Below are positions 32,435-64,000 of a stretch of 64,000 nt of DNA, in pieces. Source of the DNA: Amoebidium appalachense. Lineage: Eukaryota; Protista; Ichthyosporea. Below the pieces are notes generated by a model, which did not search any database, was not told where the DNA came from, and worked only from the letters and a program-made list of their open reading frames with translations. Position numbers and translations under genes: made by a program. Where the stretch lies: NCBI GenBank assembly GCA_963693365.1, contig CAVNZM010000009.1, positions 9,735,743-9,799,742 on the forward strand, given 5' to 3'. Positions within the stretch are counted from its first letter, which is position 1. Each line of letters starts with the position of its first letter.

Positions 32435-32500
<66 letters not shown>

Positions 32501-40827: not shown

Positions 40828-40875
<48 letters not shown>

Positions 40876-42819
40876 CAGGGCCCCGGGGGGTTAGAGTAGG
40901 GCAGCTGGGCCCAAGTGAGGGTTGGCAGGGAGGGCAGCGGGGCCCTGTGCAGGGGAATGTGCCCGAGCACGCGGGGGTGTGGGTGGACACAGCGGTAGAA
41001 GAAGGGGGGGGGGAGGGAGTGCTAGGTGAGTGTAAGGGGGGGGGGAGGCTCGTGGGATGGGGGGGGGGAGTAAAATTATGTGCAGTGGCCAGAATAAACG
41101 TCTTTGTGTAGGGACATTTATTCTTGACGCGCGCGGGCGCCGTAGTTGGCCTGCGAAATTTTGTACTCAGCCCTATTGGCCCGTTCTCCCGAGCTCCGTT
41201 TCCCTGTACTCGTGTGTCCTAGCTCCTAACCCCTATGTTCTAGCTGTGTGTGTGGGTGTGCGCGTAGACTAGGCATTGTGCTTGCAGTCTTTGCGGGGGT
41301 GTGTGCCAGAGCAGAGCGGGCACACGTGGGAGAAGGGGCAGGGCTGCTGAGCGCAGGACCGACCGTTAATGTGGAAATTCCTGCAGTGTGTCGCGGGTAG
41401 ATCCACGGGTCGGGCCGGTCTTGCCGGGCCGGGTTGCGGGCCAGGGCGGTTAGGGGTGTGACCCCCGCCGGGCTTGTGGGGCGGCTTAAAGCCGTCAAGA
41501 CCACGGCCAGGCTTGGGGTACATGGGGCAGGCCGCGCTGGGGTGGTCGGGGAAGCCACAGCGCTGACATGCGTCCGGGATGAGCAGAGTGGGTGGCAGGA
41601 GGAGATCCTGGTGGAGTTGGGCGAGCAGGTTGGGGCACTCGATCGGAGCCCGACCCTGCTGGTGGGCAACGGTGCGGGCGTATACGTCATAGTTGTGGAT
41701 CTGGGCCCACGGGTATCGGGTGCTGAGGCGAGTGATGTGCTGAGTCCAAAGTACGTCTTTGTCCGTGGGAAGGCCGAGGTGGTGCTTGGCGGCCATGTAA
41801 TGGGTCCAAGCTTGGATCCAAATGACGAGTGAACGCAGGGGAACGGGTTTGTCTTGGCGAAAAGTCTCGATGCTGCCGTCGTCGGCCATGCGCAGATGCT
41901 GACCTTTCTTGGATGGGGCCAGGAGGGCGGCGGGGGTGAACTTATACAGATCGACGAAACGATTGGCGCGCAAATCTGCCAGCACATCCGCGGGGGGAAG
42001 CGGGAGTGTGCCCGGCTGAATGTCGCCAGTGTTCTCACCTGTGATGGGGGGCGCGGGCAGGGCAGGTAGGTCTAGGTCAGGGCCGAGATGCAGCCCCGGG
42101 GAAACCTCCCCGGGTGTGGAGGGCGCGGCGGGGGGCGCGGGAGGGTCGCGGTTGGTGAGAGCAGCCAGGACGCCAGCCATCTGGGTGCTGGGATGGCGGT
42201 GAGGGCGGCCAGGACGGCGTCTTGAGAAGTCATCTGCGGGGACGGCGGGGCCTGAGGGGGGACTTCAGGAGTGGAGGGGAGAGTAGCCGGCGGGTCCGGG
42301 TCCGTGGTGGTATGGGCCGCTGGAGGCGCGTCAGTGTCCGCGGGAGCGTTGGTCAGCCTGTGGCGGAGGTCGCTGCGGGTCAGGCGCTTAGGTGCCGCGG
42401 CAGGGGCGGCGGCTGAGGCCTGGCGCTTTTTCGGCGGCATGCTGACCGGCGTAGGGAAAGATAGGGAGAATGAAAAGGAATATATAGCTGTAAGGCTGTG
42501 GATGCTAAACATAGAAGATGTGTTTGTAGCTTGCTGATCTGCTAAAAACTGTCGTGCTTATATACCTAAGCCTACCGATCTGAGCCAATCAAAAATCGAT
42601 CTAGTGATATGTGAAATCTGATCCGAGCCAATCATAACTCGGTCTAGTGATCTGTGGTATCTGATGTTTTGACTGGCTAATAGGTGCCCGTGTGCGGGCA
42701 GCCAACCGCTAACTGCTAAAACACGAAATGAAGCCTACATGGTTATGTTGGTATCGAACACCCATCCTACGTGTTTACCCAGAAAAATATTTATGTCAAT
42801 AATTTCCACAAATAAAACC

Positions 42820-43530
42820 TCGCGTGCCAGCAGGTATTACTAATTCTGAATCAAGATTTCGATTTTCTACTTCGATCATGATTGTTTTATCAGCCGCCAC
42901 TTTACTATATGAAGGACTCACAAATGGAAGTAACCTAGCTGCCGGAACAAAGACACCTATATCTGCCACGACAGCAAATTGGTCTAAGTTGACACGGACG
43001 AATGCACGACTGTGGGGAGGTACACAAATTTCGCTGACAGTGTGTGCAGTACTTTGATACCCCTCCGTACCCGTGTGCAAACGTACACTACCACCCTTCT
43101 TCAAATGCAACTTATTAGATTCTTCATCTAACAATTTAACATGTGCCTTTGAAAATGGACGGCCTAAAATCATACTCTGACCCATGTTTGCACAAACAGC
43201 AAACGTGACAAATAATGTGTGGGAACCAATGGTACATGGGAGAGTGACCCGGCCCACCACATTCAACGATGCATCAGGATTGGCAGTCTTCACACCACTC
43301 ACTAAGTTATTTGAAAACATTGTAACACGTGCACCCATCTTCATTAAATTACAAATAACTTTTTCATGCACACAATTAATGTTTGCACCACCATCTAAAA
43401 GAATTTGAACATCACCCAATACCACAGGAACATATAACCGTGCTTCTGGCTGAATTAAAGATGCAAACACTTCCTGTAACACAGAAATTTCCACTTCACT
43501 ACTTTCCACACTAGTCTCTATCACCGACAC
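42820..43530 (-). CDS. Gypsy aspartic protease and downstream beta-rich domain
   Basis: ILLDGGANINCV active-site motif and ILGRPF. It joins ...IPAGTR|LGYIEG at 34528 once Ngaro copy 4 is removed. Confidence 0.88.
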
Positions 43531-43876
43531 AGAAATATTTGAAGGGGGGGAGGGGGGGAGGGGGGGGTGGGAGGGGGCGGGGGAAGGGGAAAAGGGGGGG
43601 GACGGGAGGAAGGGGGGGGTGGGGGGTGTGGGGAAAGGGGGGAAAGGGGGGAACGGGGGGAAGACTTAGCTTCATGCTGATTCTCAACGAGAGAGGGGGT
43701 AAATTGCACCACAGCAGTTTTAACTGACTGTTTTACGGCACCAGGCCGTGAGTGATTTATTGTCTTATTTACTTTACAACAGTATCTGTATAACAAGACA
43801 CGTTGATTTCAGACATTTCACTATCACTGCACATAGCCTCAACTGCAATATACTCTACCCCACTCTCAGCGCCCCG

Positions 43877-45322
43877 TCAACGCCGACGCTCGGCCATAAG
43901 TTTAGCCGACGCCTGCTGAGCATGATCTTTCCACCTAATACCTTCGGGGGCTGAGGGAAAGGTCTTAGGCAATTTTCGGTTGGGACAATCCCGTTTCTGA
44001 TGCCCTATCCCAGTACAATGGAAACAAACTCGTTCTGAAATAGGCACGACTGGTCTCTCACTACCCTGTTGGCCACCGTGCTTGCCGTTTTTCTGATAGG
44101 GAGCCGGGCGACGGGGTTGACGGTCATTTTTGGCCTTACCACCGGCAGCCTGGAAGGCAGCCACCTGAGCCGATAAGCTAGCTATCTGAGCCTGCAGGGC
44201 AGCAATCTCCGGAGCACCAATACCACTACAGTTGTTACCTGGGGTGGAAACACTATTGACCTGCGCTTTCTTGGCCGCCTGCCGACTAGCGAAACGACCC
44301 TCCAGCTTGTTAATAATTTTCGACTGAGCCTCATCAAGCTTGCTATTTGCCTGAGCTATTTCCCACAACTGCGCATCGGCCTCAAACGTATTCCTGTATA
44401 AACTACGTTGCATTTGACCGCTGACGTCGGTGTTCAAACCAGCTAACTCCAGCAGACGGCGAAACGTGTTGGTGTGTGCCGTCACTTGGCCACCAATACT
44501 GGCAGCCGTGGCATCCGACGTGGGAGTGAAACGGAGGGCCCGGATATGTGTCTCATATGATTCACGCCGAATGTTGGTCAGCCAGTAGTTCTCGATGAAA
44601 CGCAGCAGCCACTCAGGCGCCGTCAATTCGACTTCGACCTGCAGAATCTCACCCTTGCCCTTGTGCATAGGGCGAGTCGTCTTCAGTGGTGTCCGAGAGG
44701 CCAGGTGAAGAAGAGAATCCTCCGAGCGCACCTCGCCGTCAATGCCGAGGGCACGAACCGGCACCGTCTTGTTGTCGTTTTCAGGATCCATGTAGTCGTC
44801 AAGGAGGGTAGCCATCTCCAACACATGAGGATCACCACTTGCCCGGTTCACACTCTGCAGAATCATAACTTGCCACTGGGCCAGGGGAGTGTCGGGGGAC
44901 AGCTTGGCGATGCGATCGATGAGACGGTACCATTCAAACACGTTATCAGCCTTGGAGAGCTGAGGAATCTTAAGCTTCTCCATCATAGCCGCAGCCGCAG
45001 CACACACTTCAGGAACCTGAAAAGCCTTGGCCGCAGGGGCGTCGTAGAACACTTCATCCATCACAATGGGATCTTGCCACTCCATCAAACTGGGGGGCAG
45101 AGCGTCGAGAAACTCCGGGTCTATTTCATCCTGCGGGTCCATAACTTGGCCGCGCCACTGGGTGAACTTGCCGACGGTGACATCCTTGAGCTTGCCGAGG
45201 GGGCCAAAAACAAGAGCTTGGGCGAAGGTTGCACTCAGCCCCGCGACCGGCGAAAAGGGGGGTTCCGGCTCCATGTTGGGGGCGAAAGCAACAGCCGAGA
45301 CGGAAGTTTTGCAATATAGCAA
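43877..45322 (-). CDS. Gypsy gag
   Basis: 481-aa ORF with the C-terminal zinc knuckle CFHCTGIGHQKRDC, upstream of the protease. First ATG at about 45274. Confidence 0.88.
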   Translation of the reverse strand: MLYCKTSVSAVAFAPNMEPEPPFSPVAGLSATFAQALVFGPLGKLKDVTVGKFTQWRGQVMDPQDEIDPEFLDALPPSLMEWQDPIVMDEVFYDAPAAKAFQVPEVCAAAAAMMEKLKIPQLSKADNVFEWYRLIDRIAKLSPDTPLAQWQVMILQSVNRASGDPHVLEMATLLDDYMDPENDNKTVPVRALGIDGEVRSEDSLLHLASRTPLKTTRPMHKGKGEILQVEVELTAPEWLLRFIENYWLTNIRRESYETHIRALRFTPTSDATAASIGGQVTAHTNTFRRLLELAGLNTDVSGQMQRSLYRNTFEADAQLWEIAQANSKLDEAQSKIINKLEGRFASRQAAKKAQVNSVSTPGNNCSGIGAPEIAALQAQIASLSAQVAAFQAAGGKAKNDRQPRRPAPYQKNGKHGGQQGSERPVVPISERVCFHCTGIGHQKRDCPNRKLPKTFPSAPEGIRWKDHAQQASAKLMAERRR

Positions 45323-47099
45323 TTGGATTGGTGTAGCTTGTAAAGTATCCTCACGGACACTTCAGTGTAAAATGTATGTGTATGAGTGTAAACGGGGTTC
45401 ACTCTGAACTGGATTTCAGAGGATCGATGCGTGCGTTTATATACGGATGGTCGACCCGGACAAGATTACTTGACCAATCACACAACTCCCTAGCCGACCA
45501 ATCATATTACAGATTAGTACAGGGCTAGTAATTACTGTGTGTGACTACTTGGTCTCTTGCCGGTTCTAACACTCATATATAATTTTTACTGCTGCATGAC
45601 TTATGACTTACACAGCCCCGAAATATACTCCAAATAAACAGATACCAGTACTTTTCCTGTTTGTGACTTTGGTTACCAGTTACCTTTCGGAGTGCTGTCT
45701 CTCTCACATGTGTAACTGCAGGTTTACAACGACCACTCATTGCAGCTGGACTTTACCGGGATGCCCTCGACATGACTGGTCGAATATGAGACTCCCCAAT
45801 CACTCACAACCTGCTTGTTAGTTATTCGTTCTCTATGGCCGCAGCATTTAATGTTCCAATCAACACAGAAGAGGCCATAAGTGTCCACTCACGCGAGTCT
45901 CACCGTAGTTCTTTTCCAAGTAACCGAACATATGTAATTGTATTCGATCATCCGATTGGAAAAGCAGATATCACATTTATGATTGGCTCATTCGTCAGCA
46001 AACGCCGACATCTGACTGGATGAGCCGGCACCGACGAAATGTAAACAAAGCAAATAGATCTGAATAGATCTGAATCGATTGATTGACACGAATGCTCGCC
46101 GCGGAGACATAACACCAACCTCCTTGGCAGCCATCTTATGTTTGATGGGCACCGTATAAGTTGCATTGGTTTCGTATTTTTCCAGCGCTTTTGCAAGACG
46201 TTTCCCCGTAAAGTAGAATCTTGTGGGAAAAGAACACACGTGTGGGTGTCAAAACAACGTTTTGAAAATGAGTGTGTGGTGTGCCTTGCGTGTGTGCATA
46301 TACATCGATTGTGAGTGTTTCTTGAGGTGTTGAAATGGTTAAATATACAACAGAAAGGTAAGAACATGTGCATGCCTAGATTGTGAGCACATTTGACAGT
46401 TGTCCTTTTTTCTTGAAGCAAACACTGATACAGTTACTATTTATCAAGAATCCATAATATAGACGGAATGAAATGACACCAGATGCACCCTTTCTCCAAA
46501 CTGCTTCTTGTCTCTCGCCTACTTGCCCTTCTCTTTTTGCCTTTCTCTCTCTCTCTCTCTCGTGCCTCCCCCCCCCCCCCCCCCCCCTTCCCCACCTCAT
46601 CCCTCCTTTCCCTACCTTTCTCGTTCTCATTCTCTCTCTCTCTTCCCTATTCCCCTGTCCCTATCCGACCTCATCTCTCCCATATACCCCCCCCCCCCCC
46701 TCCCCTCCCCCCTCTCCCTCATTTCCCCTCACCCCCCCCCCCCTCCCCCACACCTGCTCCCCTCTCCCCCCCCCCCCCCCCCCCCACGCTGCCTTCACCC
46801 TGTCCACACCTTTGCGAGAGGGCCCCTGCACACATTCACACAGGGACACGCACAGGCAAACTTGTATAAGCACACACATGCACATGCGCATGTGCACAAC
46901 ACATGTGCACGTTCCTTGCATAATTGGAACACAGACCCCAAGACATAACACATGCGCGCAAACATCCATCAATGCACATATACAAACACAAATATTCCGA
47001 ACGTGTGGCAAAACACACACACACACAGGTAAGAGGTCATCTGCCCCCCAAGCATTTAGGGTCTCCCCTTCCCCTCTGCCCTCCCCCCTCCCCCCGCCT

Positions 47100-47133
<34 letters not shown>

Positions 47134-48906
47134 CTCTGTCCTGCCACCACCATCACCACTGCCAATCCACGGGTAGGCACCAACATCACCCAAACTTGAT
47201 TTTCTTCTCATTCTGTGTTCTAATCAAGAGTCCCCCGCGCAGTCCACCACTTCATCACCCCCTTCCCCCCCCCCCCCCCACCCTCTCCTCCCCCCACCGA
47301 ATACAAGCATATCCACTGTTAAGGTTTATAAAACTGTATCCAGCCCCACAAGCGTGCTAGTATCTTGACCAGTTACACATTCACGTTTACTCCATCTCAC
47401 AAGCAAGAAAGTGTATCCGATACCAGCATATCCAGCCCACATGTCGTACGTGTACAACGTAAAAAAAAAAAAAAAAAACATGCCGTACATGTACAACTAA
47501 AAAAAACATATCGCACATACCTCTTGCTGTTGTCGAGAATCAACCTAAGCAGTGGTAATAGGTGTGAATGGGCTTCAACCAGTTACCTTTTTTGGACAGG
47601 TGAACGTGTGTCCCTCATCCTTTGCACAAACTCACAGACCCTGCCACCGGGGAGCCCTATAGCTAGCTAGCTAGCTAGCTAGCTAGCTTAATTAATTAAA
47701 TTCAACTTCTTACGTTTGAATACATGGGCGGGTCCGGACATACGTTTGATTGGCTGGTAGGCCAGGCATCAATCGCCAGAGGAGGGGTAAAATCAATTTG
47801 AGCCAAATGATTACATATGGGATTTCCATCGTTTTGTACCGTGTGTGCCTCAAGCTGCAAGGCACACACTGAACCACAGGCAGCTGAAGAAGCTTATTTA
47901 TATACATCAGCAAACATCTCCCGGCATCTTTTTCCCGTCTCAAACCACTCTGGGACATCCTAAACCCGTAACCCATCCTGAACCATACCCTTTTTAACCG
48001 TTATTAGTTAGAGATGACTCCAAGCTATCCCTAACCCGTCCGGCTTTAGCAGGCGATATTAAAGACATCTCTGTAACTACGTCCTTAGTATATCTGTAAC
48101 CCGGCGAAACCCTATCCCGTGTTCCATCTGTTTCCTCCCCCAAGCATATCTTAGAGCCGTCTTTGTTATGTCTTAAACGAATCTATAAAAAGACAATATT
48201 TATGAACTTTTACTAAAAAGATATCCCTAGCATATCTGTAAGCTATCGATAAGCCGTCTACAAGAGCGCTTTGCGATCACCAATATCCATCTTTAATACT
48301 ACTTTATGTAGTTCAGACGAACATATATGGCATACTTAACACCTCTTGAAGAATTTGCAGAGATATATTAGAGATATGTTGTGGTTAACCTAAATGTATC
48401 CTTACGATGTAGTTATGTAATATGTTATTTCAGTCTAACACGAGTTGTCGACTTTAGGACCTACTAAAAGCAACTCACCGATGTGATAGGCTAGGGATAT
48501 TTTTATTGGTACATAGTGACACAAACAAAGATATGCGTGAGACGTATTTACGTCATAATATAGATTCATCATCAATTGAGGAAAAGACACAATTAATATA
48601 CACTTTAGACGGCTTTAGGACGGCCTAACGTTATATATGGTCGCTCCCATAGATAGAATAATTATATATTCATAGTTCTGGTAAGAGCACCGGAAGATTT
48701 CTTGATGCAATTTTAAAGCCATCTTTCAGGATGTTCTAAAAGTCACACTAAAAAGACCGTCGTCATCCTTAAAGTCATCTGTTGGATGGCTGGAGGTCGT
48801 CGTGATGATATCTTAAACCCCCACCTCCCACCTCCCCCCCCCCCCCTTTTCCTGGGGACCACCACCCACCCCACATGAACCTTTGACGATCGATGACGAC
48901 GACGGC

Positions 48907-49132
48907 CAGACCCACAGGGTCTTGCCTCCATACTTTATTTACCTTAACAGGACAAAGAGCCGGTACCCACCTATGGGTGCTAAACATGCACATGATGGTT
49001 CGTGTGCTATAAAAGCAACACAGAAACGAAACACGGAAACAACAGCAGCCATAGGACAAAGAGCCCCAGACCCACAGGGTCTTGCCTCCATACTTTATTT
49101 ACCATAACAGGACAAAGAGCCGGTACCCACCT
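48907..49132. repeat. 66-bp direct repeat, two copies
   Basis: ccagacccacagggtcttgcctccatactttatttacc(t/a)taacaggacaaagagccggtacccacct at about 48907 and about 49067. Confidence 0.85.
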
Positions 49133-50352
49133 CATCAGCAAAGGCCACCCACCCATCCATTCGGTATCATTCGGGCATCATGGATATTAGAATGATAGTA
49201 CCCATCCACGAACCCACCCTTCATCCAACAATATATCAGTCTGATACTCTTTTTGTTAAATCCTAATATCCGGTTATTTTAAGATATTAGAATGATATCC
49301 ATGTCTAGATATCATTCTGATATTGGAATAGCCCCCGAAAAAGCCCGAAAAGCCCCCGAAAAAAGGCATTGTTCTACTTGTTGCTCTATCCTTTGGCCAT
49401 CCCGCTATGTATCATTCTGATAACATAATAGATATTGGAATGATACATACCCTCAAATGCTCTACGTTTTCAGATAGGGGTAAACATATCTGAATGAGAC
49501 TTGAATAGTACATTACAAAGTACAAAAAGTGCCCTCGTTGGTCATGCACGGTTATCCAAATGATATCATAATGATATCATTGCAAGAACGGGAGGTGTAT
49601 TATAATATCTTTGTATGCCCTATTATGGTATTGGTATGATAGAAGAAAATGAAATTATCTTCCTTTCCTAATATCAGAATGGTCTCATTCTAATACCGTG
49701 AATGATATCCAAATGATATCTATTGTAGAAAAGGGGGTGTATTATAATATCTTTGAATGCCCTATTATGGTATTGGTATGATAGAGGAAAATGCAACGAA
49801 ATTCCTTTCCTAATATCATATTGGTGTCATTCTAATATCGTGAATTCCAAAACCTCATATCATAATAGCACTATTCCAATATCTTAAAATCGTGGAACAT
49901 TTAAATCTGTACCCTATTATAGTATCATAATTGAGAGACATGTATATCATTATGGTCACCTTTGAGTGTCGTTGTGGGCATCATAATGGTCACTTAAAAT
50001 ATATCATTCGTGTACCATAATGGTACCATTTTATTGATTCGTTCCGTCGTCGACGTCCCCCCCCCCCTCCCCCCCCCCCCCCCCCCCCCCGGTCGATCTG
50101 CTATTAGCACTAAACTGTATTCAGACTTAGAAAACAAAAAAAGAAATTCTAAGTAAATCTCAAAAAAAACAAAAAAAAATTTTTTTCTAAGTAAATCTCA
50201 AAAAAATTTCTAAGTCTCGCTCAAAGAGAACTACGTATCATGATGTTTTTCAAAAGTTCTAAGACATACGCCCAGCATGTGTTAATACCGTCACATTTTA
50301 ACCTTCCAAACAACCATAATAAAACATAACAATATACTAACATTTTTGTTAG

Positions 50353-50897
50353 TTAGTATACTAAATTATTATTTCTTTTTCTTGTGTTCAAATTCTTGGG
50401 GGGGGTCTTTATGGGTGATTGTGCGGGCCGCTTATTGGCGACGCGCGACGCCTCGTCGCTGCTGCTGCCGCCGCTCTCACGCTCCTTGTCCCCCGCACCG
50501 CCATCCACCGACATGTTGCCGTCCAACAGCTTGGGGTCCACCACCTTCTCGACGATGACGTTGGTGTCGGGGATGGGGTCGGCCTCCTCATGACGATGTC
50601 TCCGTCGTTCTTGTCCTTGTTGCCGGCAGCGTCATCGTTGATCTCCTCGGCCTCCTGGACCTTAGCCTCGGCCTCCTTGGCCTTTGCCTCGGCCTCCTTT
50701 AAGTTAGCCTCGGCCTCCTTTAAGTTAGCCTCGGCCTCCTTGGCCTTAGCCTTACGGACGCGCTCGTACTGCTTGATGTACTGTTGGGGCAACAGAATGA
50801 CGTGTTAGTCTTACTTGTGTGCTGGTGAACAATATTGCCAAAATACAGGCAGAATATTCCGTGCTGGTTCATAAGGGCTTCACTTAACATTGATTTG

Positions 50898-50942
<45 letters not shown>

Positions 50943-53900
50943 TGGTGGTGGTGGTGGTGTGTGTGTGTGAGTGTGTGTTGTGGGGGCGGGGGGGGGGGGG
51001 GGGGGGGGGAGGGCATGGGTGTGCTACATGGCATTAGAGTGAGTGGGAAAAACTGTGTCGGTCGAGGCACTTTCACAAGAAATAAAATGGGGTTTTTTGG
51101 GGTGCTGGTAGGGTGTCTGTGTATCTGTGTGTGACTTGTGTATGCAGCAGAGGGTTGGATATACGGAAATGAAGACTTCAGAACACAAGCCAGAAACCCA
51201 AAAAAAGGGGCAGGAATTAAACGTGGGTGTGCATGTGTGTGTGGAGGGGGTGAGGGGGGGGGGGGGGGGGGAAAGACAAAACATACCGCCTTGATGGTTT
51301 TAGGGTGTGCCCCACCAGCGTAGTTCGGTTCATTGACCCTGTACACAGCTTGGGGCCAGTTGGTGTTGTCCTTGCACTGGTGCATCTGGATGCACTTCAA
51401 ACACTCCTCGAGAAGGTTCACGCAGACACTGAAAAATTGCGTCCAGCCCTTGGCAATGTCCTGAAGGGGGAACCAAGGATACGCGGGTTAGAGTACGTGT
51501 GGTGCTCTGTGGTAGACAGGCGTCTGTAATGGTGGGCAGCTCTAGGAGTGGGTACAGGACAAAACTCAAATTATATTTAAAAGTACGCACATAGTTTGCA
51601 TAACAAGGGGGAGGGTGGGGGGGGGGGGGGGGAGGGTGGGGGGGGGGGGGGGGGGGGGGGGACCTGAAGGGGAGGTGACAGTGCTCATCTGTTATATAAA
51701 TCAGATGGCTAAACCTAACAAGTTTCCTGTTTTATAAATGCTCATCCAAAATATCGGTTGATGGCCCCCTATATCGTTGAAACACTGGCAAAGCATATGC
51801 TCATCCATGACCCATCTGGATGGCTCCCTAGATACTCGTAGCAAGGATAGAGAAGGCCTTACAATCAAAAACATCATTGTACATTCGAATTCGAATCTCG
51901 GAGGACTACCTACACTCATCATGGATGCATGTATGATATCTATAAGGATATCTATATTAGATAACAAAATATATTTAGATATCTGAATGATATCTCCAAA
52001 TATATACACAAAAGGACCTGTTGGATATACAAATTCTGCTATGTTTGTTTCGAGACCGTGCAAAACGGTGAAGGGATGAACGGGGTCTGAGGAGATGAAC
52101 GGGGGGAGGGGGGGGGGGGGGGGGGGGGGATAAAGAGAAAGTTGTGGAGGGAGGTGGCTCGTGCACTTCCATAGAAAGGCTTGATGTTGAACCAGGTAGG
52201 GGTGGTGGTGGGGATGGGTGTTGTGTTGGAAGGTTGGCGCGGGGGGGGGGGGGGGGGGGGGGGGAGGTACATACACGTGAACTTTTGCCGCCAATCACTG
52301 CCCTGATGCCCTTCATGCTCAGGGAGCTGAACATGCGGTGGAATGAGGCATACCCATATGGGTCGCCAGTCACTGGATCGGCGCTGTACTTGCGGCCACA
52401 GGGAGCGCCATCCAAGAGAACCTCATCGAGCAGCGAATTCCACAGACGGCCACGCACATCGGCCGTGGGTACCCACGTCATCAACTGCAAGGGACAGGAA
52501 AAGAATGTGGGCGGGGAGTGAAAAGGTTAATGATCAACCAAACACCTGGTATTTGTGCTAAATGGGAAGGGGTACACTATCGGCAGAAATGACCTCGAGA
52601 GATTGATCACTGAGCAAGTAGAGAGTAGTGCATGGGAGAAGAGGGTTGGTTGGGAGTGAGGGGGGGAGGGGGAAGGGGGGGGGGGGGGGGGGGGGGACAC
52701 CAAAGCACAAATAATACAAAACCGAAAATACACTAGTCCTTTATCCAAAAGTTGAGTGTAATAGGGTAGGGTAAACGATGAAGGGATGAATGGGGTGTGA
52801 GATGGGATGACCGGGGGGGGGGGGGGGGGGGGGGGGTTAGAATGCGTTACAGAGTACGAAGTACTACACATACACGATGGAAAACGCAATGCGATGAATG
52901 GGGGGGGGGGGGGGGGGGGGTTCCAGAGAAAGTTGTGCAGGGAGGTGTCGCGTGCACTTGCATAGAAACAGCTTGTGTGCCTGTGTGTGTGTGTTTTTGG
53001 GGGGGGGGGGGGGGGAGACTTGCATCCAAGTTGTCAGTGCCTGGGACCACATAGTACTTGCTCAAGAAGGTGCGAATGTGCCCATGCAGCGTGGACCTGA
53101 CCGTGGTGAGGCCAGTGCGGATCTGGGTGACCTGCTTCTTCTGGTCAGACTTGCGAGCTGCGTTGTGCAGAGCATTGCACCATGCCTCCTTGGCCGCCGC
53201 GGGGATGCGGTCGAAGTTGACGGGGTCGATCAGCTGGGTGGTGGAAAGGACAGCGGCGGCCAAATCGCGGTCGTTCTCGTCGTTGATGTGCGGCGTCTCG
53301 AGCAGCATGCGCTGCCATAAAACGTCGGTCTTGGTTCTGGACATGACGTTGTTGGCCTGAAGGAAACAACAACATGTGAACAAAGGCCGTTGCGTTCCAA
53401 AATACCAAGCAATCAAAACGGATGAGCTATTGTGTTTTTAGCGCTTGCGTTGATTGATTGGAGAAAAACTAGCATCTAAATAGCACTGTACCCTGGTCCA
53501 TTTATTCAATTGAACATACCATCATGATGCGCGGCAAACATTATATCTTTTGTGGCAATTAATTACTTCCTCAAGTGTGTATACAAATAATGAGCTTCAG
53601 ATCAAGAAAAAAAATTCTAAAACATAGAAAATGGTTACAAACGAGTGTACAGGAGGTAATGGATAGGGTGTGCGTGTGCGTCTGTGTGCTTTCGTGTGTT
53701 GGTGTGTGTATGCTGTTTGAGGTTGGGCCTTTTTGTTTGTTTTCTCCTTTTGTTTCCGATAGGGGAAAGGGAGATACGGGGGAAGGGAGGGGGGGGGGGG
53801 GGGGAGACATACACACCACTCTAAGCCCTGCTTGAAGGACATGGGGCTGTTCTCCTGGCTGTTGCTGCCATCTTCTTGGGGGTCCTCCTCGTCGATGGAG

Positions 53901-56019
53901 TCCGGGCTGGCAGAACCAACGGTGCGGGGAGCCGGCGGTGTTTTCTGCTTCACACTGGGAGTCGCCGCTTGCTCTGCCCGGTCGGCATCGGTGAGCGGGA
54001 AATCCATATGCAAAGGATTAAGCGCAAACCGCATCTCGGCGCGGCTGACGGTCTTCAGGAACTGAATCTGGCGGCGGAGGCTGGCGCGGGGAAGTCTTTG
54101 AGGGACCACGGTAACAAGGTAGGACAGTTCGACTGGGTCCCGCGGCAGGGCGTCCTGTATTTTCTTGTCGTTCAGGTCCGCGTCGAGGTCCATGTTTCCG
54201 AGCTGTTCCTCCACGGCCTCTTCCTCTTGACCGTCAGCCCACTCGTCGTCTGGATCTTGAATTTGTACTGCACACAAGGGTGAGTGATCATTTCGGGCAT
54301 AAATTTGGATGTTGGCAAGACAGGGACGGGGGCTAATTGGGAAGATGTTTCATTGCATGATATGCAAGTGCACATTATGATAACCTTTTTGTATAAATAT
54401 ACATATAAAGAACCATTAGAATGATATCTAAAATATCACTAAAGATATCATTATGTGCAACCAAAAGTTCAACCATACCATACAACTCTCGTGCAACTAA
54501 AGATATCCACACCTATAACATACATCTCTCAAACACCAACTGTGCAGCGTAATACCGAACACCAACAAGAAACAGTTGAAAGGAAACACCCTCACACAAG
54601 CACCAAATAGACCATCTTTGTTAGAGGGGGGTGGGGGTAACAACCAGCAACCGGAATATTTAACTGTCCCACTGAGCCGAAAGCAGCAACCATCTTTTCG
54701 ACGCTGGGTACAAAATGCGGGCGACAGTCACACACAGGATACAGTGAAAGCTGGTCTATCCATCTAAACGTGGCTGTGTTCACTGCCAAAGCGATGTTGG
54801 GACCCATCTGAAAACCATAGTGCAGTGAACCGGGCGTGGTCTGTACCAAGTCACCAGCCCGCTGCACAATAATAACTGGAGCCATTCCAATTGAAGCCAG
54901 AAAGAGAGGTGAACGAGGAATGTAATTCTTGTGTTGCAAAGGGTTGGAACACGATTGCGGAATCTCCTTCACTGCAAGCGCGAGCAGACGTTTGTACTGC
55001 GACGGAGGATGAATAAACCATATCTTCAGTCCCCACAAAAGTAGGCTGGCAGAGGCTAGAGCAGCATCCTCGATGTGTGCACCAAATAAAGTCAACCCCA
55101 TAAGTGTCAACTGCATATACAACATGGCTTCGTTTATGCCAGGCATTGCGTCTCCGTAATGATTTGCCCCCAGCGGTGTGAAGTCAGCAATGGTGGTCAC
55201 GTAAAAAAAACGACTGTCGTTGATCTTTGTGGTGTCTACCTCAACGTCTGAGGCATACACCCCTCCCTTGCCCACTAGGTTTTCTTGGTAAAAGTGTGCT
55301 ATCTCATCACCACTCATGTCTGCTAGACCACCCCTTTCCTTAGGAACGGCGGGGATATCGGACAGCTTCACGCTTACATGCTTCCTATCAATTTCACACC
55401 AACTGTCTGAAACACTTGCAACTGTCTGCCTAACTGCCTGTTTCCTGATTTCCCTCGCACAAAATAGTTTGATTGCTTCCCCAAAAGGGATAGGGGACCC
55501 GAAACCGCTGAGTAAACAGCCCCCGTCACCACGCGCCTCGGCCTTGTGCAAGGCACTTAGTGCTTGCAAAGCTCTACGTTTATCCATGTGTGTGCTCGCC
55601 TAATACCAAACATAAACCATTAAACGACAGAGTGGAAATGACGTTGGGTTTAGGATTTTAAGAGCTTATATACCATGCAGAGCACAACGGTCAGAACAAC
55701 ACAAAGGTGAAGGTGAACACGTAAGACACCCACCTTTCTTGCGACCGTTAAGGATGCTGATGGCGAAAGGGGCGGTGTTCTTGGTGATGCTCGAGAGCAT
55801 CACAGTAGCAGCGCCAGCAGGGTCCGTGCGGCTACGTCCCGTCCTCGACCCCGCAGGGTTAGGGGCCGGCTGCGTCCCCCCGTTCTTGCCGCTGCCGGCC
55901 CCTTTTGGGTTGGGCTTCGAGGGGAGATTATACGTATCATCGTTGCTATCGTCGCTGGCTACTGGTTGTTCCTTCTGACGATGCTTGAGGCCCTGACTGC
56001 GTGGTTTCCGTTGCAGCAT
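50353..56019 (-). CDS. Transposon accessory gene B, unknown function, homologous to 5694-13968
   Basis: Exons about 56019-55734, 54255-53813, 53356-53024 (GC donor), 52484-52275, 51460-51287 and 50780-50353 (frameshift about 50590). Motifs YVVPGTDNLD, PCGRKYSADPVTGDPYG and YAGGAHP; the C-terminus has KEAEA coiled-coil heptads. Confidence 0.75.
54592..55587 (-). CDS. KDM4-like JmjC histone lysine demethylase, intronless 331-aa ORF nested in intron 1 of accessory gene B
   Basis: GVYASDV, PGINEAMLY, FGAHIED (HxE), LKIWF, CSNPLQHK, VQRAGDLVQTTPGSLHYGF, PNIALAVNTATFRW and VCDC align in order with KDM4 motifs YGADV, GVNTPYLY, WHTED, PKSWY, C..FLRHK, QEAGEF...YHAGF, NCAESTNFA..RW and CSC. Confidence 0.92.
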   Translation of the reverse strand: MDKRRALQALSALHKAEARGDGGCLLSGFGSPIPFGEAIKLFCAREIRKQAVRQTVASVSDSWCEIDRKHVSVKLSDIPAVPKERGGLADMSGDEIAHFYQENLVGKGGVYASDVEVDTTKINDSRFFYVTTIADFTPLGANHYGDAMPGINEAMLYMQLTLMGLTLFGAHIEDAALASASLLLWGLKIWFIHPPSQYKRLLALAVKEIPQSCSNPLQHKNYIPRSPLFLASIGMAPVIIVQRAGDLVQTTPGSLHYGFQMGPNIALAVNTATFRWIDQLSLYPVCDCRPHFVPSVEKMVAAFGSVGQLNIPVAGCYPHPPLTKMVYLVLV

Positions 56020-56138
56020 AATGTCGGCGGGTTTGTGCAAGAAAAACACCTTACAGGCATCAGACTGATACTTTTCTGCGGGTGTTTGAGTGGTTTTGGG
56101 TGCGAAAAATTGATGCATACCGATGTCGTACAATGATT

Positions 56139-56150
56139 TTTCATTGGTCC
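56139..56150 (-). promoter_or_regulatory. Conserved CCAAT-box motif GGACCAATGAAA upstream of accessory/JmjC gene B
   Basis: Identical to 5563-5574, with the same 120-nt spacing to the ATG (56019). Confidence 0.6.
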
Positions 56151-57170
56151 ATCGGCCGATCAGATTAATATTCTGAAGCCAATCAGACATGCTACATTTT
56201 GTTTCTGCTGAGGCAGTGCAAACCAAGTCAAATGGTGGCCCACGGTTGCATCAAGTTTTATAATTAATCGGTACCTATACGACAATTACCCTTTTGAAAG
56301 CATTTTATATTTAAGTATTTTTATCGATGAAAATAAAAAATACCTAAGTATACAGTATGTGCTCTATTTCGAGAACAGCATCCCTAAAAAACGCGCCAGT
56401 GCCTTGTTCCCTTATTGTCGTGATCCCCCGCAATTTCCGTTCATTAGGCTTGTGCGTAAAAAGCTAATATTGAATTTCCAGTGTGGGGAATACGACTATG
56501 AAACCGTAACAGCCATACTTCAAAGAATGAAATTTGTTTGTCACTGTAAAAATACACAATCTCGCACTCCAGATAATTTCTCATGCCTGCCTATGCCTCA
56601 TTCTCAAAGGAAAAATGTTGCACATGATAAAAACATCCGAAATATGGGGCTGAAATTGTCGAAAGTGATTTCGTGCACATTCATCTATTAAGGTGTTGGG
56701 GGATCCGGTGTTTTAGTGATCACCAATGGGGAAGGGTTGTCCTACGGCGAAATTGCCATGTGCAAAGAACCGAGCACCCCAATGCTCAATAAACGATGGG
56801 TGAGGCAAAACTTTACCGTCCACACTAGAACCGAATTTGGGTTGAAGCTGCTACTACTAACGTTTAAAAAAATTATTGATGCACGGACCGTTCTTTGTAT
56901 AATTTTAAGGCGGGTTAAAGCTCAGGCAGTGTTTGCTTTTTCTGATAGTTAGCATGATATTCACCCAATCAGAAAGACGTAATTCGGAGCTGCTCATCGA
57001 GATATATCATTGAAGCCTTATTGATAGCATCTTGATGGATTGGATGGGTTTCAAAGCCTCATTATACTATCAGACTGATATTTGTTCTTGGTTTGCGACG
57101 GTTCGCGCTGTAAACAAAAGAAATTATACAAATGTGATAAACTATATATATAGAAAAGAAACACAACATT

Positions 57171-57214
<44 letters not shown>

Positions 57215-57369
57215 AATATATATATATATATTTATATTTATATATGTATATAAATATATATGTACCGTACTAATACAATCAGTGTACACCCTATTTACAC
57301 GGCGCTGAGATATGGTTCACCCTGTGTTTGGTTGTGCTATGTACCTGTTCTTTTGCAAGCACCCAGAAA

Positions 57370-60300
57370 ATGCCGCAAATTCCGTGTCCAGAATGCATTT
57401 TTTCTTTCAAAAACAGAGCTGGTATGGAGAGCCACCGTGTATTTACACATAAAAGGACAAGAGAAGAGCTTGAGCGGGAAAACCAGATCCGAACACGTGG
57501 TGATGCACGCACCCAGCAGCATGAGCATGAGCCAGAGGGTGATGATCATGATGGTGGGTGGGAGGACCTACCAGAGCTACCCGCGGACCCTGAGGACCCT
57601 CCCGTCGTAGAATCAATACCCCCAGAATGCACACACCATCTCATGTTCCTCAGGGACGGGGATCAGTATCATGCTCTGAAGGACAAGTTAATCCAAAAGC
57701 AAAAGCAACAGTATGTAGTGCCAACCAGGGACATGATTCATTCTTGGGGCAAGTGAACGTCCCAGAGGGACAAAAAGCATACATTAAAGATGTCAGTGAG
57801 TTCATCGAACATCTACGGGAGGACCCCGACTACCCGTTCGCCAACAAGGCCGAGGTAGGGATTTGCTTTGGTGCAATAATGATAGAAGAATGAGCCTTTA
57901 TATACAACTACAACTGTAAAGTACCTTTCTAGTACTCTGGTGGATATCGTTCTGATATACATATGGATATGCAACAGTGCACCGTCCTATTACCATTTTT
58001 TGTCATGCATATGGTGCTGATTATAAATGACGCCTCTGATCCCTGCAGGCAGATATGGCCCACTACTTCCATGAAAACAAGACGTCCATTGCGGCCGCAG
58101 ACCGCCTTCTGGGACTCATGAGGGAGCATGCCCATGGTGATCTTGCCCAAGACACGTTTCCCAAGAAGGTCGAACACCTGCACAAGAAGATGGACACCAT
58201 CCCCAGTCTGGTAAGCGTGTAGATCTGGAAGGGGAAAAAAAAAATGCCCGAAACCCTAGATCCAAAGATTGCTGGTTACCGTTGGTTGGTTTGTTCGCGC
58301 CCGCGCCCACATCTAGATCTGGATCCGATTCAACAAATTCAATTGGAGATACGATTGGCTGTATGGTTGGAATCTGCATACCTGCATAGATGCAGGCAAA
58401 CACAGCTAACAAATTTCGCTTGCCCGAAATCATGCCACCTACACGCACCACAAGTGCGTACACGGTTGCACATATCTATCCCCTATCCTCACGCAAATAC
58501 ACTACCCACACATGACAACCACACCGAAACATTACAGGCGTTTTCTCGCATGGAGGTGGACCTGCACCGCCCTGGCATCAACAAGGCAGTTGTCATGTAC
58601 AGAGATATTGGCGACTGCATCCAGCGTGTGCTCCTTCACCCCACGCTTGAAAAGGATGGCTCCATTACCTATAAGACAGAGTTTCCGGTTGATGATTTGG
58701 GCCGTAGGGTATACACAGACCACATGGATGGTGACTGGGCAATAAGGGAGGAGCTGAAGATACCAGTTGGGGGCACCCTCTGGTCGATTATTGTGTACTC
58801 TGACCAGACCCAGCTCACGTCGTTTGCAGGGAAGAAAGCGTATCCTGTCTACATCTGTGGTGGTAACATTAACAAGAACGTCAGATCAGGCGACTGGAGC
58901 AAGTCAGTAGTCGGTCAAGTAACAATATTATTTCAATGATTATTTTTTCCCCATAATTTTCTGTTTTTTGGCCGGGGCAAATGCACACATGCATGGATCT
59001 AGAGACGGGCATGGACTAGTTTAGGGCGCCGCGTTTGCGTCTGTGGCTTGTGTAAGATAATAACCCGGGCTTTGCAGGCTTCCAATTGCGTACATCCCCG
59101 AGCTGGATATCTCGAATGGAAAGAAGGTTTCAGAGGCAGTCAAGTCCAAAGCGCGACTGCAACTGTTTCATGAGATCATCGACCGAGTCATCGGCGAACC
59201 CCTGCGTGCAATGAACGCGAAAGGGCGGTGGTTTTACTGCGGGAGCGACAGGATGTGGCGGCTTATGTTCCCACGTGTATCGTACTACGTTACGGACTGG
59301 CCTGAGGGGCGCAAGGTGACATGTACCAGGCAAGTATTTAAATATATCATTATGGTATTAGTCGTATATACATGTTTTAGGTTTTGGATATCATTCATGT
59401 ACCTTGAAACCCAAGCAACAGTATCATAATGATATCATTCACGTACATTGAAATCCACTTTTTTTTGCCATTGACACACACGTATACATACTAACCTGTT
59501 TTTGTTCCTTGACAGGTCCGGGGTTGCCACTGCCAGCCCATGTCATAAATGCTGGGAATCATGCGAGACACTGTGCGAGGTGTGGAACCCAAAACCACTG
59601 AAGACAGAGGAGGCAGTCAGTGCCATCTATTCTAAGGTGGCTGACCTGCGTTCAGACGGGCAATCTGCTCTCGCGAGCGAGTTGCTGAAACAAGCCTCGC
59701 TTCAGGACTTCACAGCGAATGCCGGCCCGGAACTACCCGGTTTCTGGTGGCTGTGGGGCGTTCCCATTGAACGCATGCACCAGGCAGAGAGTGGTGTGTT
59801 TAAGCAAATGATCATCGAATACAAACAGTATGTTAAACACATCTGTGAAGTCGTTGGTGATGGGCCCGGGTCTGCTGCTGACAACCAAGCCAAGGAAATC
59901 ATTCGGGAGTTTGATCGCCGGTTCAATGAATTGCCACGGTTCCACGGGCTTAGGCACTTCACCGGCACCGTGTCTGATCTGACGTTCCTTCGTGCTAACG
60001 AGCACAGAGATCTAATGAAGGTACTAGTAGCCCTCACCCCCCCCCTCCCCCTCCCCCCCCCCCCATCTACCTCCCCTCCCCCCCCCCTCTCTCAGTCCTC
60101 TCTCAGTCCCCCCCCCCCATCTACCTCCCCCCCCCCCCATCTACCTCCCCCCCCCCCCCCTCTCTCAGTCCCCCCCCCCCCATCTACCTCCCCCCCCCCC
60201 TCTCTCAGTCCCCCCCCCCTCCCCCCAACCCACCCGAGGCTCCTCCTTGCTTACTGCTTGCTCTACAAAAAACCTAAATGAAAAAACATTTCAGCACATG

Positions 60301-61213
60301 AACATTGTCTTCGTTTGACCATTGAACCACACACACAGGGCATCCCTTTCGTCGTCCGTGGCCTGCTTCCCGATGAGGCTGCCAACAGGAAAGCAGAGAA
60401 GGTGTTTGTGGGATGGAATGATTGGTACACCACTGTGACGAAGGACACGTTTACTGAGGAGGATCTGGAAGAGATGACTGCTAAATATCGGAGGTACAAT
60501 ATACCCCCACTGAACCATACACCCCCACCCATGTAACGGTATACTAGTACACCCCCACACCCACTCATTTCTGTATCATCACTTACTAAGAGGGTCACGA
60601 AAATTGGAATGTGCTTTATGATATGTCACAGTGTGTACACAGTCTCATCAGCGTGGGACAGGTTTGCTCAGGACGCGTACGATTGCTTCAAGGAATCTAC
60701 CAAGAACAACCTTCGCACAGCCAAGCTTCATGCTGGTGACCACTACGCCGATGACTACCGTCTATTTGGTCCCCTTGAGACGGCTGAGAGCTGGGAAAGG
60801 GCCCACAAGTACTACTGCAAACTCCCGTACCGTATGACCAACAAGAACTCCACATTCATCGTTCAGGTCAGTGTGAAGGGGGGTTTCACTGGCGGTTGGG
60901 GGGGGGGGGGAGGGGGGAAGGGGGGGGGGAAGGGGGGGGGGGGTTCTTTCTCGATTTCTTTCCCTTTCCTAATGTGGTAACTTGGTAGGTGGCAACAAAG
61001 GTTCGTCGATGGGATGCCATGGACCTGCGTCGGGCATTGCTGCAAGGTCTGCATGCAGAGATGGACAACCCACCACTTGACGTTCATGATGTACCACCTG
61101 ACGTGAATGAGGCTGTTCTCGAGGAGGTGCTGGCAGGACTCGAGAGGAGGAGGACGTGGCAGTACCCGAAGTACCTGATGATGCTGGACTGGAAGCGGCA
61201 GACGAGGAGGTGA
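57370..61213 (+). CDS. Plavaka-family transposase copy B, 8 exons, about 780 aa, one frameshift in exon 1
   Basis: Exons 57370-57854, 58049-58210, 58538-58902, 59078-59329 (GC donor), 59516-60020, 60339-60493, 60662-60866 and 60989-61213. N-terminal CPEC...H..FTH finger. Plavaka motifs IIVYSDQTQLTSFAGKKAYPVYICGGNI, QLFHEII, YVTDWPE...CHKC, ERMHQAESGVFK, FDRRFNELPRFHGLRHF and KLH...HYADDYRLFG...ESWERAHKYYCKLPYRMTNK. 1-nt deletion near 57725-57735. Confidence 0.9.
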
Positions 61214-61341
61214 CAGTTCTCATGTCAGGTAAGGGGGGGGGGGGGGGGGGGGGGGGTGTCACTGTGGAGGGGGAGAATGGGGGGCAGGGGCAGTTAGGAA
61301 GTTAACGGGGGGGGGGGGGGGGGGGGGGGTCATATCACCCG

Positions 61342-62275
61342 TCGATAAAAAAACACACACAAATGTGCATAAAATCACCCTGGGTGCACGGGTTCGACCC
61401 AGTTTTTTTGCCCTGCAAACAGGGGGCACGTGGGGGGTGTGTGTGTGAAGTTTGGTGCATGTACGGGCACTGGTCGGACGGGAGGGGGGTCCATCGGCCC
61501 AATTTTACAGTGATTTGTACATGAAAGCGCAGAATCAGTTATACACGAATGCAAATACACCTAACTCCTTCCAGAAACACAAGTAGCAAGAGTTAGGGGG
61601 CTCCCAAGTAACGTTTGGGGGTGGGGATGATGGTGCAGGGGTTTTTGGGGGGATAGGGCCATATGCCTGCCCATAAAATGAAGTCCCAGGGGGGGGTCTG
61701 AGTGTTTTAATAGGGGATATCGATAAAAACACACACAAATGTGCATAAAATCACTCTGGGTGCACGGTTTTCGACCCAGTTTTTTTGCCCTGCAAACAGG
61801 GGGCACGTGGGGGGGGGGGGTGTGAAGTTTGGTGCATGTACGGGCACTGGTCGGACGGGAGGGGGGTCCATCGGCCCGATTTTACAGTGATTTGTACATG
61901 ATAGCGCAGAATCAGATATACACGAATGCAAATACACCTAACTCCTTCCAGAAACACAAGTAGCAAGAGTTAGGGGGCTCCTAAGTAACGTTTGGGGGTG
62001 GGGATGATGGTGCAGGGGTGTTTGGCGGGATAGGGCCATATGCCTGCCCATAAAATGAAGTCCCAGGGGGGTCTGAGTGTTTTAATAGGGGATATCGATA
62101 AAAAAACACACAAATGTGCATAAAATTACTCTGGATGCACGGATTTCGACCCAGTTTTTTTTTTTTGCCCTGCAAACAGGGGGCACGTGGGGGGTGTGTG
62201 TGAGAAGTTTGGTGCATGTACGGGCACTGGTTGGACGGGAGGGGGGTCCATCGGCCGGATTTTATTGTAATTTCT
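61342..62275. repeat. Tandem repeat of about 377 bp, about 2.5 copies, just downstream of the transposase
   Basis: tcgataaaaa...acacacaaatgtgcataaaat starts at about 61342, 61720 and 62096, with near-identical units. Confidence 0.93.
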
Positions 62276-62317
62276 TCATGTGTGGTTGTGTGTGCGTGTG
62301 TGTGTGTGTGTGTGTGT

Positions 62318-62407
<90 letters not shown>

Positions 62408-63762
62408 AGGAAGGGGGGGGAGGGGGGGGGGTGCTTCATCATACCGGTAGAAAAAACCCCCTTTTCCCCTAAACCCCCCGGTCTTTAAATTTTTAACTTT
62501 TGCATTCCCAGGTAAACAACACCAAAGGGGTTTGAGGCTCTCGACACTGGATTCCTTCTTTGACCAGGAACGGGAAGCGGTCCCCAGCCCCCTTCTAACA
62601 GATAATGGGAGAAATTGTAAAGTTTACATTTTGTGACGTCACGGTGGTGCCACAACGGGGTATTTTATTAGCATACGAATAGTAAATGCTGAGCTGGGGA
62701 CCCGGCAGGAAAGATATCGACCAACGGGGACGGCCCGTCATGAGCGGTGTTCGGATACAAAAACACAGCAAAATATTGACATGAAAACATCCGAACGGGG
62801 CCTGCACGTTCGTGTCAAATTATTCATATCATATCCAATTCGGATTCTGAGAGTCCACCAAGAAGACAAAACGAACAAAAAACGTGCCCATCACAGATTT
62901 GTGGTGAAACACGTCTTCGGGGAAACACGTATTCCGGAATATATATTAGAATCAAAATAAGCATGTTCCAGGAGCCATAAGACGTGTCTGCAAGTCCATG
63001 AGCAAGACGTTATAGAAGTTAGACAGTATTGATACAAACATATTCCGGAATACGATATTATGGGACAAGTGGTTTTGCTGTGGTTTGGGTAAAGATCTCA
63101 TAGCTGAGCAGTCCCCAACGTGCAGAAAAACACATATTCCGGAATATGTTAATCGGCCTATTGCAAACCCAGTTTTGTGCATTCTCAACCATACATGCCC
63201 GTGCTATGGACCAGAAAAACTGATACACTTATTGGTGTCAAGAGAACCAACCCAACCCCACCCCAATCCCAACCACCATCTACTCGAGCTAGTAGAGACA
63301 AAAGCCCTAAAACATAACATAACACAACATAACACAAAAAAGAAAACACAAGCCCGTTCGTTCGTTTGTTCGTTCCATGAGCATGTAAAAATATGTCAAG
63401 ATAAAATGTGGCTGAAGGACAGGAAAGCGTTTATTCATTCAATCATTCATTCATTCTTTACTTTCACTGAACGACGAGTGAATTCTCTAGAACATGTGTT
63501 TCAATACAAATATTGATGCAAATGAATACAAATTTATATATACCCACAGGGTATAACGTGATGGTCATTCGAGCAAACATCATGGCCATTGCAGCTGTTG
63601 TTGTCGTCATTTGGGGCGCAAGCGCTTTGCAATCGGCTAGAAAAACATACTAAGCGGCAAAGGTGGGAGTGGGCTGTCGGCATCATACTCAGCGTCTACA
63701 CGGTGGGTTGCATGGTGTTGAGTGCTTTCCTGAATGATATCAGGTTCTCGGACACCATGTTC

Positions 63763-64000
63763 TCTATGAAAACTACTCCGGGACGTGTGTTGCCTCTAGG
63801 GGGACATCCCCTTGGACGAAAGTGAACCTGCAATGGTTGTAAACCACGGCAAGCCCCCAGTCATCAATTTATTGATCCGTGAGGTCCATGTGCCCAAAAA
63901 ACGGGGGAAGTCTTCGCCCCGTGAAAAAACAGCACGTATGTGGGGATCAATGGGGGTTGTGTGTGGGTGTAGGTGGGTGGGTGAAAAGGAATATATAGCT
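63763..64000 (-). mobile_element. 3' end (A2 tail, spacer, B2) of Ngaro copy 5, running out of the window
   Basis: Near-identical to 34529-34766. Confidence 0.93.

Follow-up and report, generated by a model that had tools for sequence, protein, structure and literature searches.

The DNA analysed here, referred to as the window, is a 64,000-nucleotide stretch of contig CAVNZM010000009.1 of Amoebidium appalachense. At its positions 50353-61213 a gene encoding a Plavaka transposase (plus strand) stands head-to-head with a second gene (gene 2, minus strand), which carries a nested gene encoding a JmjC domain protein. Every part of this module, designated copy B, is matched in mirror order by the region 1012-13968 (copy A) in tblastn comparison within the window. 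The protein identities across the parts range from about 26 to 76%, with 54% identity over 160 amino acids (aa; E 4e-49) in the case of the JmjC proteins, and no blastn match of at least 100 bases was found between the coding parts. An earlier, sequence-only reading of this DNA had proposed that a Plavaka transposase diverges here from a JmjC-bearing locus, which is confirmed by matches to PF18759 and PF02373 above the Pfam cut-offs. Its further proposal, that the arrangement occurs twice, holds for the mirror-order layout of copy A but not for the JmjC gene of this copy, which is without a start codon and lacks its first half.

Genes of the module and their two copies

The transposase gene of copy B (57370-61213, plus strand) was assigned to the genes of Plavaka (CMCT/EnSpm-like) DDE transposases based on its family matches, exon model, and motifs. 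Its model consists of eight predicted exons (57370-57854, 58049-58210, 58538-58902, 59078-59329, 59516-60020, 60339-60493, 60662-60866, and 60989-61213); the transposase splice sites were predicted from the sequence, and the exon models were built from coordinates. Family PF18759 matches 58223-58936 (71.7 bits) and 59064-59426 (35.8 bits) at a cut-off of 26.3, and an open frame of 622 codons runs through exons 2-8. The predicted spliced protein contains the motifs YSD, TDWPE, CHKC, HAGDH, and ESWERAH, by which its catalytic acids can likely be assigned. The location of CHKC (C(2)C) and HAGDH (H(3)H) between TDWPE and ESWERAH fits the CMCT signature described in PMC12730594. In copy A, the transposase gene (1012-4728, minus strand) is represented by three open exons (4728-4201, 1933-1778, and 1233-1012), with a Pfam score of 22.2 bits, which is below the cut-off. 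A truncation of this gene at 1012 was considered and rejected as unproven; since the site resembles an intron donor, the gene probably continues beyond the window. A word-index protein search with one transposase exon gave no match. Two metagenome loci were set aside as relatives of the transposase, because they matched over 27 residues and the match in the one that was checked (L001) fell in an unrelated frame of 398 aa.

Directly after the stop codon of the copy B transposase there is a 377-base tandem array of 2.4 copies (61349-62264), possibly a subterminal part of the element. The transposase gene of copy A is adjoined by a repeat at 395-1009 (two 250-base matches 366 apart), which is unrelated to the 377-base array. 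Intron 1 of the latter gene houses an array of 183-base units (2706-3713, 5.5 copies, with a partial unit at 2056-2169). This array recurs at 18837-19718 (4.8 copies; 91-93% matches), 4.9 kb past gene 2 of copy A, where its end coincides with the start of a retroelement.

Gene 2 of copy B (50409-56019, minus strand) has six exons (56019-55734, 54267-53813, 53356-53024, 52484-52275, 51460-51287, and 50780-50409), which form an open model of 609 codons. Its product comprises a basic and acidic low-complexity front, a conserved middle, and a tail of charged repeats; the tail may contain a one-base shift near 50600, with an alternative stop at 50353. Gene 2 of copy A (5694-13968, plus strand) has seven predicted exons; exons 3 and 4 disagree in phase, and a small exon is possibly missing from the model (six candidates, none of them selected). 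In the comparison of gene 2 exons between the copies, the scores of three exons beat all 500 shuffles and that of one was borderline (5/500), and the first and last exons failed this test (147/500 and 17/500). No family or relative of gene 2 was revealed by searches of Pfam/NCBIfam and PDB sequences, by word-index protein searches, or by an Atlas search with two of its exons, and its matches to Tropomyosin, FRB, and Dmc1 were rejected as being far below the Pfam/NCBIfam cut-offs. In X2 and X9, two of the runs compared with the window, a further contig shares no more than the last part of exon 2 of gene 2 (53830-53917) and then diverges, representing either a rearranged allele or a partial copy. 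Intron 4 of gene 2 in copy A contains a piece of a tyrosine-recombinase retroelement (9179-12350, plus strand), which is not a part of the module and matches at 91-99% other copies in the window that hold recombinase and reverse transcriptase (RT) domains.

The JmjC gene of copy B (54592-55587, minus strand) is a single exon of 331 codons located within intron 1 of gene 2 (54268-55733, minus strand, 1466 bases, GT..AG). Family PF02373 matches 54595-55599 (53.2 bits) and, in copy A, 6017-6580 (41.4 bits) at a cut-off of 24. The exon joint 55734/54267 of gene 2 is present without differences in contigs of X9 (depth 74.5) and X11 (96.7), both from one study, and since gene 2 spliced in this way omits the JmjC frame, the latter is nested in intron 1. 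The sequence-only reading was right in placing a JmjC frame in the second locus, but this frame is not an exon of it. X9 and X11 were considered RNA-like solely from the GT..AG joint; the guess of the tool for them was DNA, and no run with this stretch is recorded as RNA. In the contigs of X2 and X10, intron 1 is retained as DNA, with no joint. The JmjC frame occurs in X9 and X11 as separate unspliced contigs that extend past the two sites at which it would be spliced, reaching 54542 on one side and 55617/55654 on the other. The positions 54274-54495 and 56161-57150 are without cover in X9 and X11, which carries no weight by itself, and the contigs give neither strand, nor transcription start, nor level. 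An alternative model, in which JmjC is a fused exon of gene 2, is permitted by the phases but was rejected, as the X9/X11 joint leaves JmjC out; a minor fused form, or a fusion in copy A, is possible.

The simplest reading is that JmjC is a single-exon gene with a putative promoter of its own in intron 1. A TATA-like box (55666-55672, minus strand) is located 62 bases into this intron and about 80 bases ahead of the JmjC start codon, and a similar box is present 45 bases into intron 1 of copy A. The JmjC remnant of copy A (6017-6583, plus strand) is open and occupies the same intron position. It contains no Met before frame residue 147, and the equivalent of residues 1-155 of the copy B protein is absent.

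The transposase gene and gene 2 of copy B share an upstream region (56020-57369) of 1350 bases between both start codons; the corresponding distance in copy A is 965 bases. These regions contain a weak 42-base match between the copies, with a CCAAT box (5563-5601 and 56109-56150, E 0.007), situated about 90-130 bases ahead of the gene 2 start in both of them. Each of the two intron-containing genes of copy B has one predicted GC-AG intron (donor GCAAGT), at 53023 and 59330; that of gene 2 is a GT-AG intron in copy A.

Introns are located at equal places in copies A and B, which concerns both transposase introns of copy A and introns 1, 3, 4, and 5 of gene 2. The silent sites between the copies are saturated: four-fold sites agree in 30 of 100 cases over all aligned exons and in 6 of 32 in JmjC. 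The proportions of synonymous (pS) and non-synonymous (pN) differences are 0.75 and 0.32 in the case of JmjC, close to those in the case of the transposase (0.81 and 0.31), the proteins of which are also 54% identical; gene 2 evolves faster (pN 0.47). This comparison supports selection acting on JmjC, the divergence of which equals that of the transposase. Given the similar layout and introns, the saturated silent sites, and the same 54% identity in JmjC and transposase, the unit appears to be old and selected, and the claim of an old, conserved linkage made in the sequence-only reading stands. Copy A is probably decayed. Two more relatives of JmjC, with about 82% DNA identity, occur in contigs of X2, X9, and X11 (one contig is of 4758 bases), and 6 of 8 and 7 of 11 of their listed changed codons, respectively, are silent. 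Their depths in X2 (638 and 197.5, vs. 30.9 for JmjC of copy B) hint at repeated JmjC families, although depth is no copy number. Copy B itself recurs in two further DNA sets, at 99.8% in one and at about 98% in the other.

Similarity of the JmjC protein to KDM4 demethylases

Among proteins of solved structure (PDB sequences), the best relatives of the JmjC protein are KDM4B, KDM4A, KDM4C, and KDM4D (E 5e-18 to 2e-15), followed by yeast Rph1. KDM5-type entries are weaker (E 3e-7 or worse vs. 5e-18 for the best KDM4), and a profile of the two copies ranks them likewise (KDM4 1.5e-17 vs. KDM5-type 5e-13). Among 1.84 billion proteins, a profile search retrieved 2052 hits, the best 150 of which are KDM4-type, with Cys234 present in 152 of the 153 aligned rows (the best 150 hits with their cluster members). 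The closest outside relative, P0002, is 37% identical over 269 residues. In a tree of 152 rows and 140 columns, which omits the repeat proteins P0001 and P0003 and the cluster duplicates P0153-P0156, the proteins of copies A and B group together, with P0002 next to them, within JmjN-poor divergent KDM4-like proteins. The choice of KDM4 over KDM5, which the sequence-only reading had left to phylogeny, is favoured by the E values but not settled by this tree, which contains no KDM5 rows and is weak because of its long branches and no outgroup. A word-index protein search with JmjC gave no match. Locus scans revealed no relative of the module in viral contigs and, in the case of JmjC, none in metagenomes.

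The AlphaFold model of the JmjC protein, built from 71 sequences, has a predicted local distance difference test score (pLDDT) of 84.2 (32 in the case of a single-sequence fold). When compared with the core of human KDM4A-D (PDB 2q8e, 7jm5, and 4hon), the model shares the fold over KDM4A residues 22-340 (Z 27.4, root-mean-square deviation 3.7, 295 residues aligned), its first helix and strand aligning from residue 22, but the sequence identity is about 24% and no reader domains are present. Viral folds are remote from the model (best E 2.5e-6, template modelling score (TM) 0.44).

The features by which the sequence-only reading had recognized a KDM4 enzyme (HxE..H, the Lys of KxW, and C-x5-H..CxC) are indeed formed by residues at the matching KDM4A positions. 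By residues of the copy B frame they are HIED..H (171/173/256), LKIW (188), C-x5-H-K (213/219/220), and CxC (286/288), with SASL at 179-182. The iron ligands of KDM4A, His188, Glu190, and His276, correspond to H171, E173, and H256, and its zinc site, Cys234, His240, Cys306, and Cys308, to C213, H219, C286, and C288; both sets are kept also in copy A. Copy B additionally keeps Tyr132, Asp135, Gly170 (presumably a functional residue of KDM4), Tyr177, Lys206, Lys241, Asn290, and Arg309 (KDM4A numbering). It departs from KDM4A by Asn198->Ser, Tyr175->Met, Ser288-Thr289->Ala-Val, and a replacement of Glu169. The iron ligands of KDM4 were described in PMC6010108. Its 2-oxoglutarate contacts are Tyr132, Asn198 (PMC6010108 and PMC8162366), and Lys206, of which Tyr132 and Lys206 are kept here. 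Of the methyl-lysine pocket of KDM4 (Tyr177, Glu190, Ser288, and Asn290, with Lys241), every residue but Ser288 is retained. According to PMC8162366, Tyr177, Lys241, and Asn290 orient the methyl-lysine, and Ala-Ile at 288-289, to which the Ala-Val here is similar, shifts the me2/me3 preference of KDM4A; Ala is the commonest residue at position 288 among the aligned relatives (103/153). On its residues and predicted fold, the JmjC protein appears to belong to KDM4.

As read by eye, P0002 comprises a basic low-complexity front, an intron-like stretch, and then JmjC, which resembles exon 1 and the intron here. Divergent KDM4-like proteins (P0001, P0005, P0011, P0018, P0060, and P0140) occur in whitefly, thrips, and springtail, including a whitefly protein with 15 JmjC repeats. 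Four of them (P0001, P0005, P0011, and P0018) have no JmjN match, and some of the set have small zinc fingers. The setting of these insect and springtail genes could be mobile too.

Possible role of the module and its known counterparts

The explanation that we modestly favour is that a Plavaka family acquired a KDM4 core free of introns, by means of which it strips H3K9 methylation from its own chromatin. The catalytic core, of the host KDM4 type but with neither PHD nor Tudor readers, would have been taken up by an ancestral element and would be transcribed from its own intronic promoter, yielding the enzyme separately from the gene 2 protein. In the presence of Fe(II) and 2-oxoglutarate, the enzyme would demethylate H3K9me3 and, considering Ala-Val at 288-289, possibly H3K9me2, perhaps with lysine 36 as a further target. 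Having no reader domain, it might act broadly or be guided to the element by a partner, for which gene 2 is a candidate. Silent chromatin on the element would thereby be loosened, allowing an escape from host control, and the selection observed between families would result from a better spread of those retaining JmjC. This anti-silencing role is deduced from sequence. If it is true, the module is a transposon with its own eraser of a histone mark and, provided that the enzyme is active, directly undoes the H3K9 mark by which it is silenced. An enzyme encoded by a single exon of 331 codons is directly testable.

Several observations weigh against this explanation. Just two linked copies, 37 kb apart, are present in the window, one of them with half a JmjC. 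No convincing terminal inverted repeats were found between 42830-50400 and 61220-63780, only low-complexity or chance pairs, and a search for target site duplications of 2-3 bases gave pairs at chance level (679 and 10960 candidates), among which no real inverted repeat occurred. The element ends may be lost, interrupted, or beyond the window. Of the DNA transposon proposed in the sequence-only reading, the Plavaka transposase and the repeated layout were thus found but not the terminal repeats or target duplication, and with no ends the term follows from the transposase, the repeated layout, and the setting among young mobile elements. In exon 1 of the copy B transposase, the frame is broken by one base near 57740, at a place that is open in copy A; the break is either real or an assembly error, and in this assembly the gene does not have the unbroken frame of an autonomous copy. 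The ability of copy B to transpose autonomously may have been lost. In X10, 6 of the 9 listed changed JmjC codons of copy B alter the residue, which fits a copy no longer selected, although these changes, at a depth below 5, may be errors. As regards the protein, no JmjN was detected in residues 1-150 by Pfam and PDB sequence searches, and the fold model leans to KDM4 because it was built on an alignment of KDM4-like proteins. The 2-oxoglutarate contact Asn198 is Ser in both copies, as the sequence-only reading had cautioned; this concern is eased by Ser at the same position in 18 of the 153 KDM4-like relatives. In PMC12730594, the transfer of TET/JBP cargo between transposons is called passive, and so carriage alone is no proof of benefit. 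Finally, most JmjC-only KDM4-like genes of Amoebidium lie in giant-virus insertions (PMC11244446).

The departures from KDM4A at positions 198, 175, and 169, the missing readers, and an identity to KDM4A of about 24% in the fold match would also agree with a Plavaka cargo that has another job, acting on another substrate or mark or, for example, opening the insertion target site, the more so as KDM4 activity is a prediction. We regard this as possible but doubtful, as the methyl-lysine residues Tyr177, Lys241, and Asn290 (PMC8162366), as well as Asp135, are kept and the selection on JmjC equals that on the transposase. The prevalence of JmjC-only KDM4-like genes in giant-virus insertions of Amoebidium (39%, i.e., 52 insertions), some of which are without most viral genes (PMC11244446), suggests another origin, namely that the transposase, gene 2, and the KDM4-like gene were brought in on viral DNA, the enzyme having been of use to the virus; that gene 2 has no known relative would suit this as well. 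It is nevertheless unlikely. Pfam searches of 52 + 19 + 17 window reading frames revealed no viral family, and the closest viral folds are remote. Whereas insertion genes are described as intron-poor, the genes flanking JmjC are intron-rich, with conserved spliceosomal introns, and the window, which elsewhere contains only retrotransposon families by Pfam, has no gene-dense, intron-poor region with core viral genes of the kind expected of a giant endogenous viral element.

An anciently duplicated, domesticated host locus, with a former transposase, gene 2, and the nested KDM4 copy all serving the host, would account for the missing element ends, for the splicing of gene 2 in RNA-like contigs, and for the maintenance of copy B in two other DNA sets; a couple of KDM4-like genes were reported among host genes (PMC11244446). 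Two silent-saturated copies amid young nested retrotransposons (91-100% identical), the broken copy A and the frame break of copy B, the existence of more diverged JmjC families, and the retained catalytic motifs of the transposase make domestication unlikely to much the same degree as a viral origin.

It may be proposed, tentatively, that the KDM4-like genes credited to giant viruses are partly or wholly Plavaka cargo. The element, with an active H3K9 demethylase hidden in an intron of its accessory gene, would jump into silenced regions, viral insertions included, and the genes called multi-exon would each be an accessory gene and a nested frame annotated as one.

Sarre et al. 2024 (PMC11244446) described the JmjC-only KDM4-like genes in giant-virus insertions of A. 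appalachense as multi-exon. The Plavaka giant repeats form a separate class in that paper, with tandem intron-poor genes, many tyrosine recombinases, and a flanking Plavaka transposase, so that both items mentioned in the sequence-only reading are to be found there. The KDM4-like genes of that paper resemble ours in encoding a divergent catalytic core without PHD/Tudor on parasitic DNA and in their proposed role against H3K9me3 silencing. In contrast to those multi-exon, virus-borne genes, ours is single-exon, nested, and tied to an intron-rich transposase gene, in a window with no viral marker. Nor does the module resemble a Plavaka giant repeat, as the recombinases in the window belong to RT-bearing retroelements and no tandem gene cluster accompanies the transposase. 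The module would also be a further means by which the KDM4-like expansion reported for Amoebidium could have been carried.

Cargo acting on chromatin is of a known kind in Plavaka elements, since TET/JBP occurs in those of fungi, and SET/methylase and 2-oxoglutarate oxygenase proteins in those of red algae. The TET/JBP-bearing PlavakaB elements of Agaricus bisporus and Gymnopus confluens (Kojima 2025, PMC12730594) likewise combine a transposase of the C(2)C and H(3-4)H type with a 2-oxoglutarate-Fe(II) eraser of a silencing mark, and the escape from silencing proposed for them is inferred in both cases. Their cargo is a DNA dioxygenase, whereas here it is a KDM4-like histone enzyme nested in an intron. 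Also, the ends of PlavakaA (TGT..ACA) and PlavakaB (CATCA..TGATG), with inverted repeats, and their 2-3 base target duplications are defined in that paper, and none were found here; the term JmjC is absent from its main text. The giant Plavaka elements of Bostrychia and other red algae, with PAG1-3 (bioRxiv 10.1101/2025.02.11.637652), are similar in having several genes, including accessory ones of no assigned function, chromatin enzymes, and adjacent tandem arrays. Their cargo differs, being an adenine-methylase/SET protein and ParB with 2-oxoglutarate oxygenase, with JmjC or a demethylase unmentioned in the accessible text. The VANC gene of Arabidopsis VANDAL (MuDR) elements is also a transposon accessory gene that counters host silencing, but it encodes a sequence-specific factor with a shown effect, while our enzyme is predicted and known from sequence alone. 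In the literature searched, mostly non-subscription, we found no paper linking a Plavaka element to a KDM4 gene, and JmjC, KDM4, and Plavaka are never mentioned in PMC12344493. A KDM4-type histone lysine demethylase as cargo would be new relative to the known DNA-demethylating or SET cargo of transposons.

Surroundings of the module

Simple repeats abound in the window, which is eukaryotic DNA. Outside the module it consists of nested retrotransposons, namely tyrosine-recombinase, Gypsy-type, and Copia-type elements, the class of which was read from their domains. Between 45948 and 46433 there is a frame of 161 codons with a weak match to the PH domain (E 0.0027), which is below the cut-off. 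Copies or pieces of tyrosine-recombinase retroelements are located at 9179-12350, 19719-30730, 34510-42821, and 63763-64000; they are 91-100% identical and nested within one another and within the Gypsy-type element. The latter is represented by a gag-like region (43877-45361), RT (32339-34561), and integrase (30651-31413), and a Copia-type RT is present at 37236-40067.

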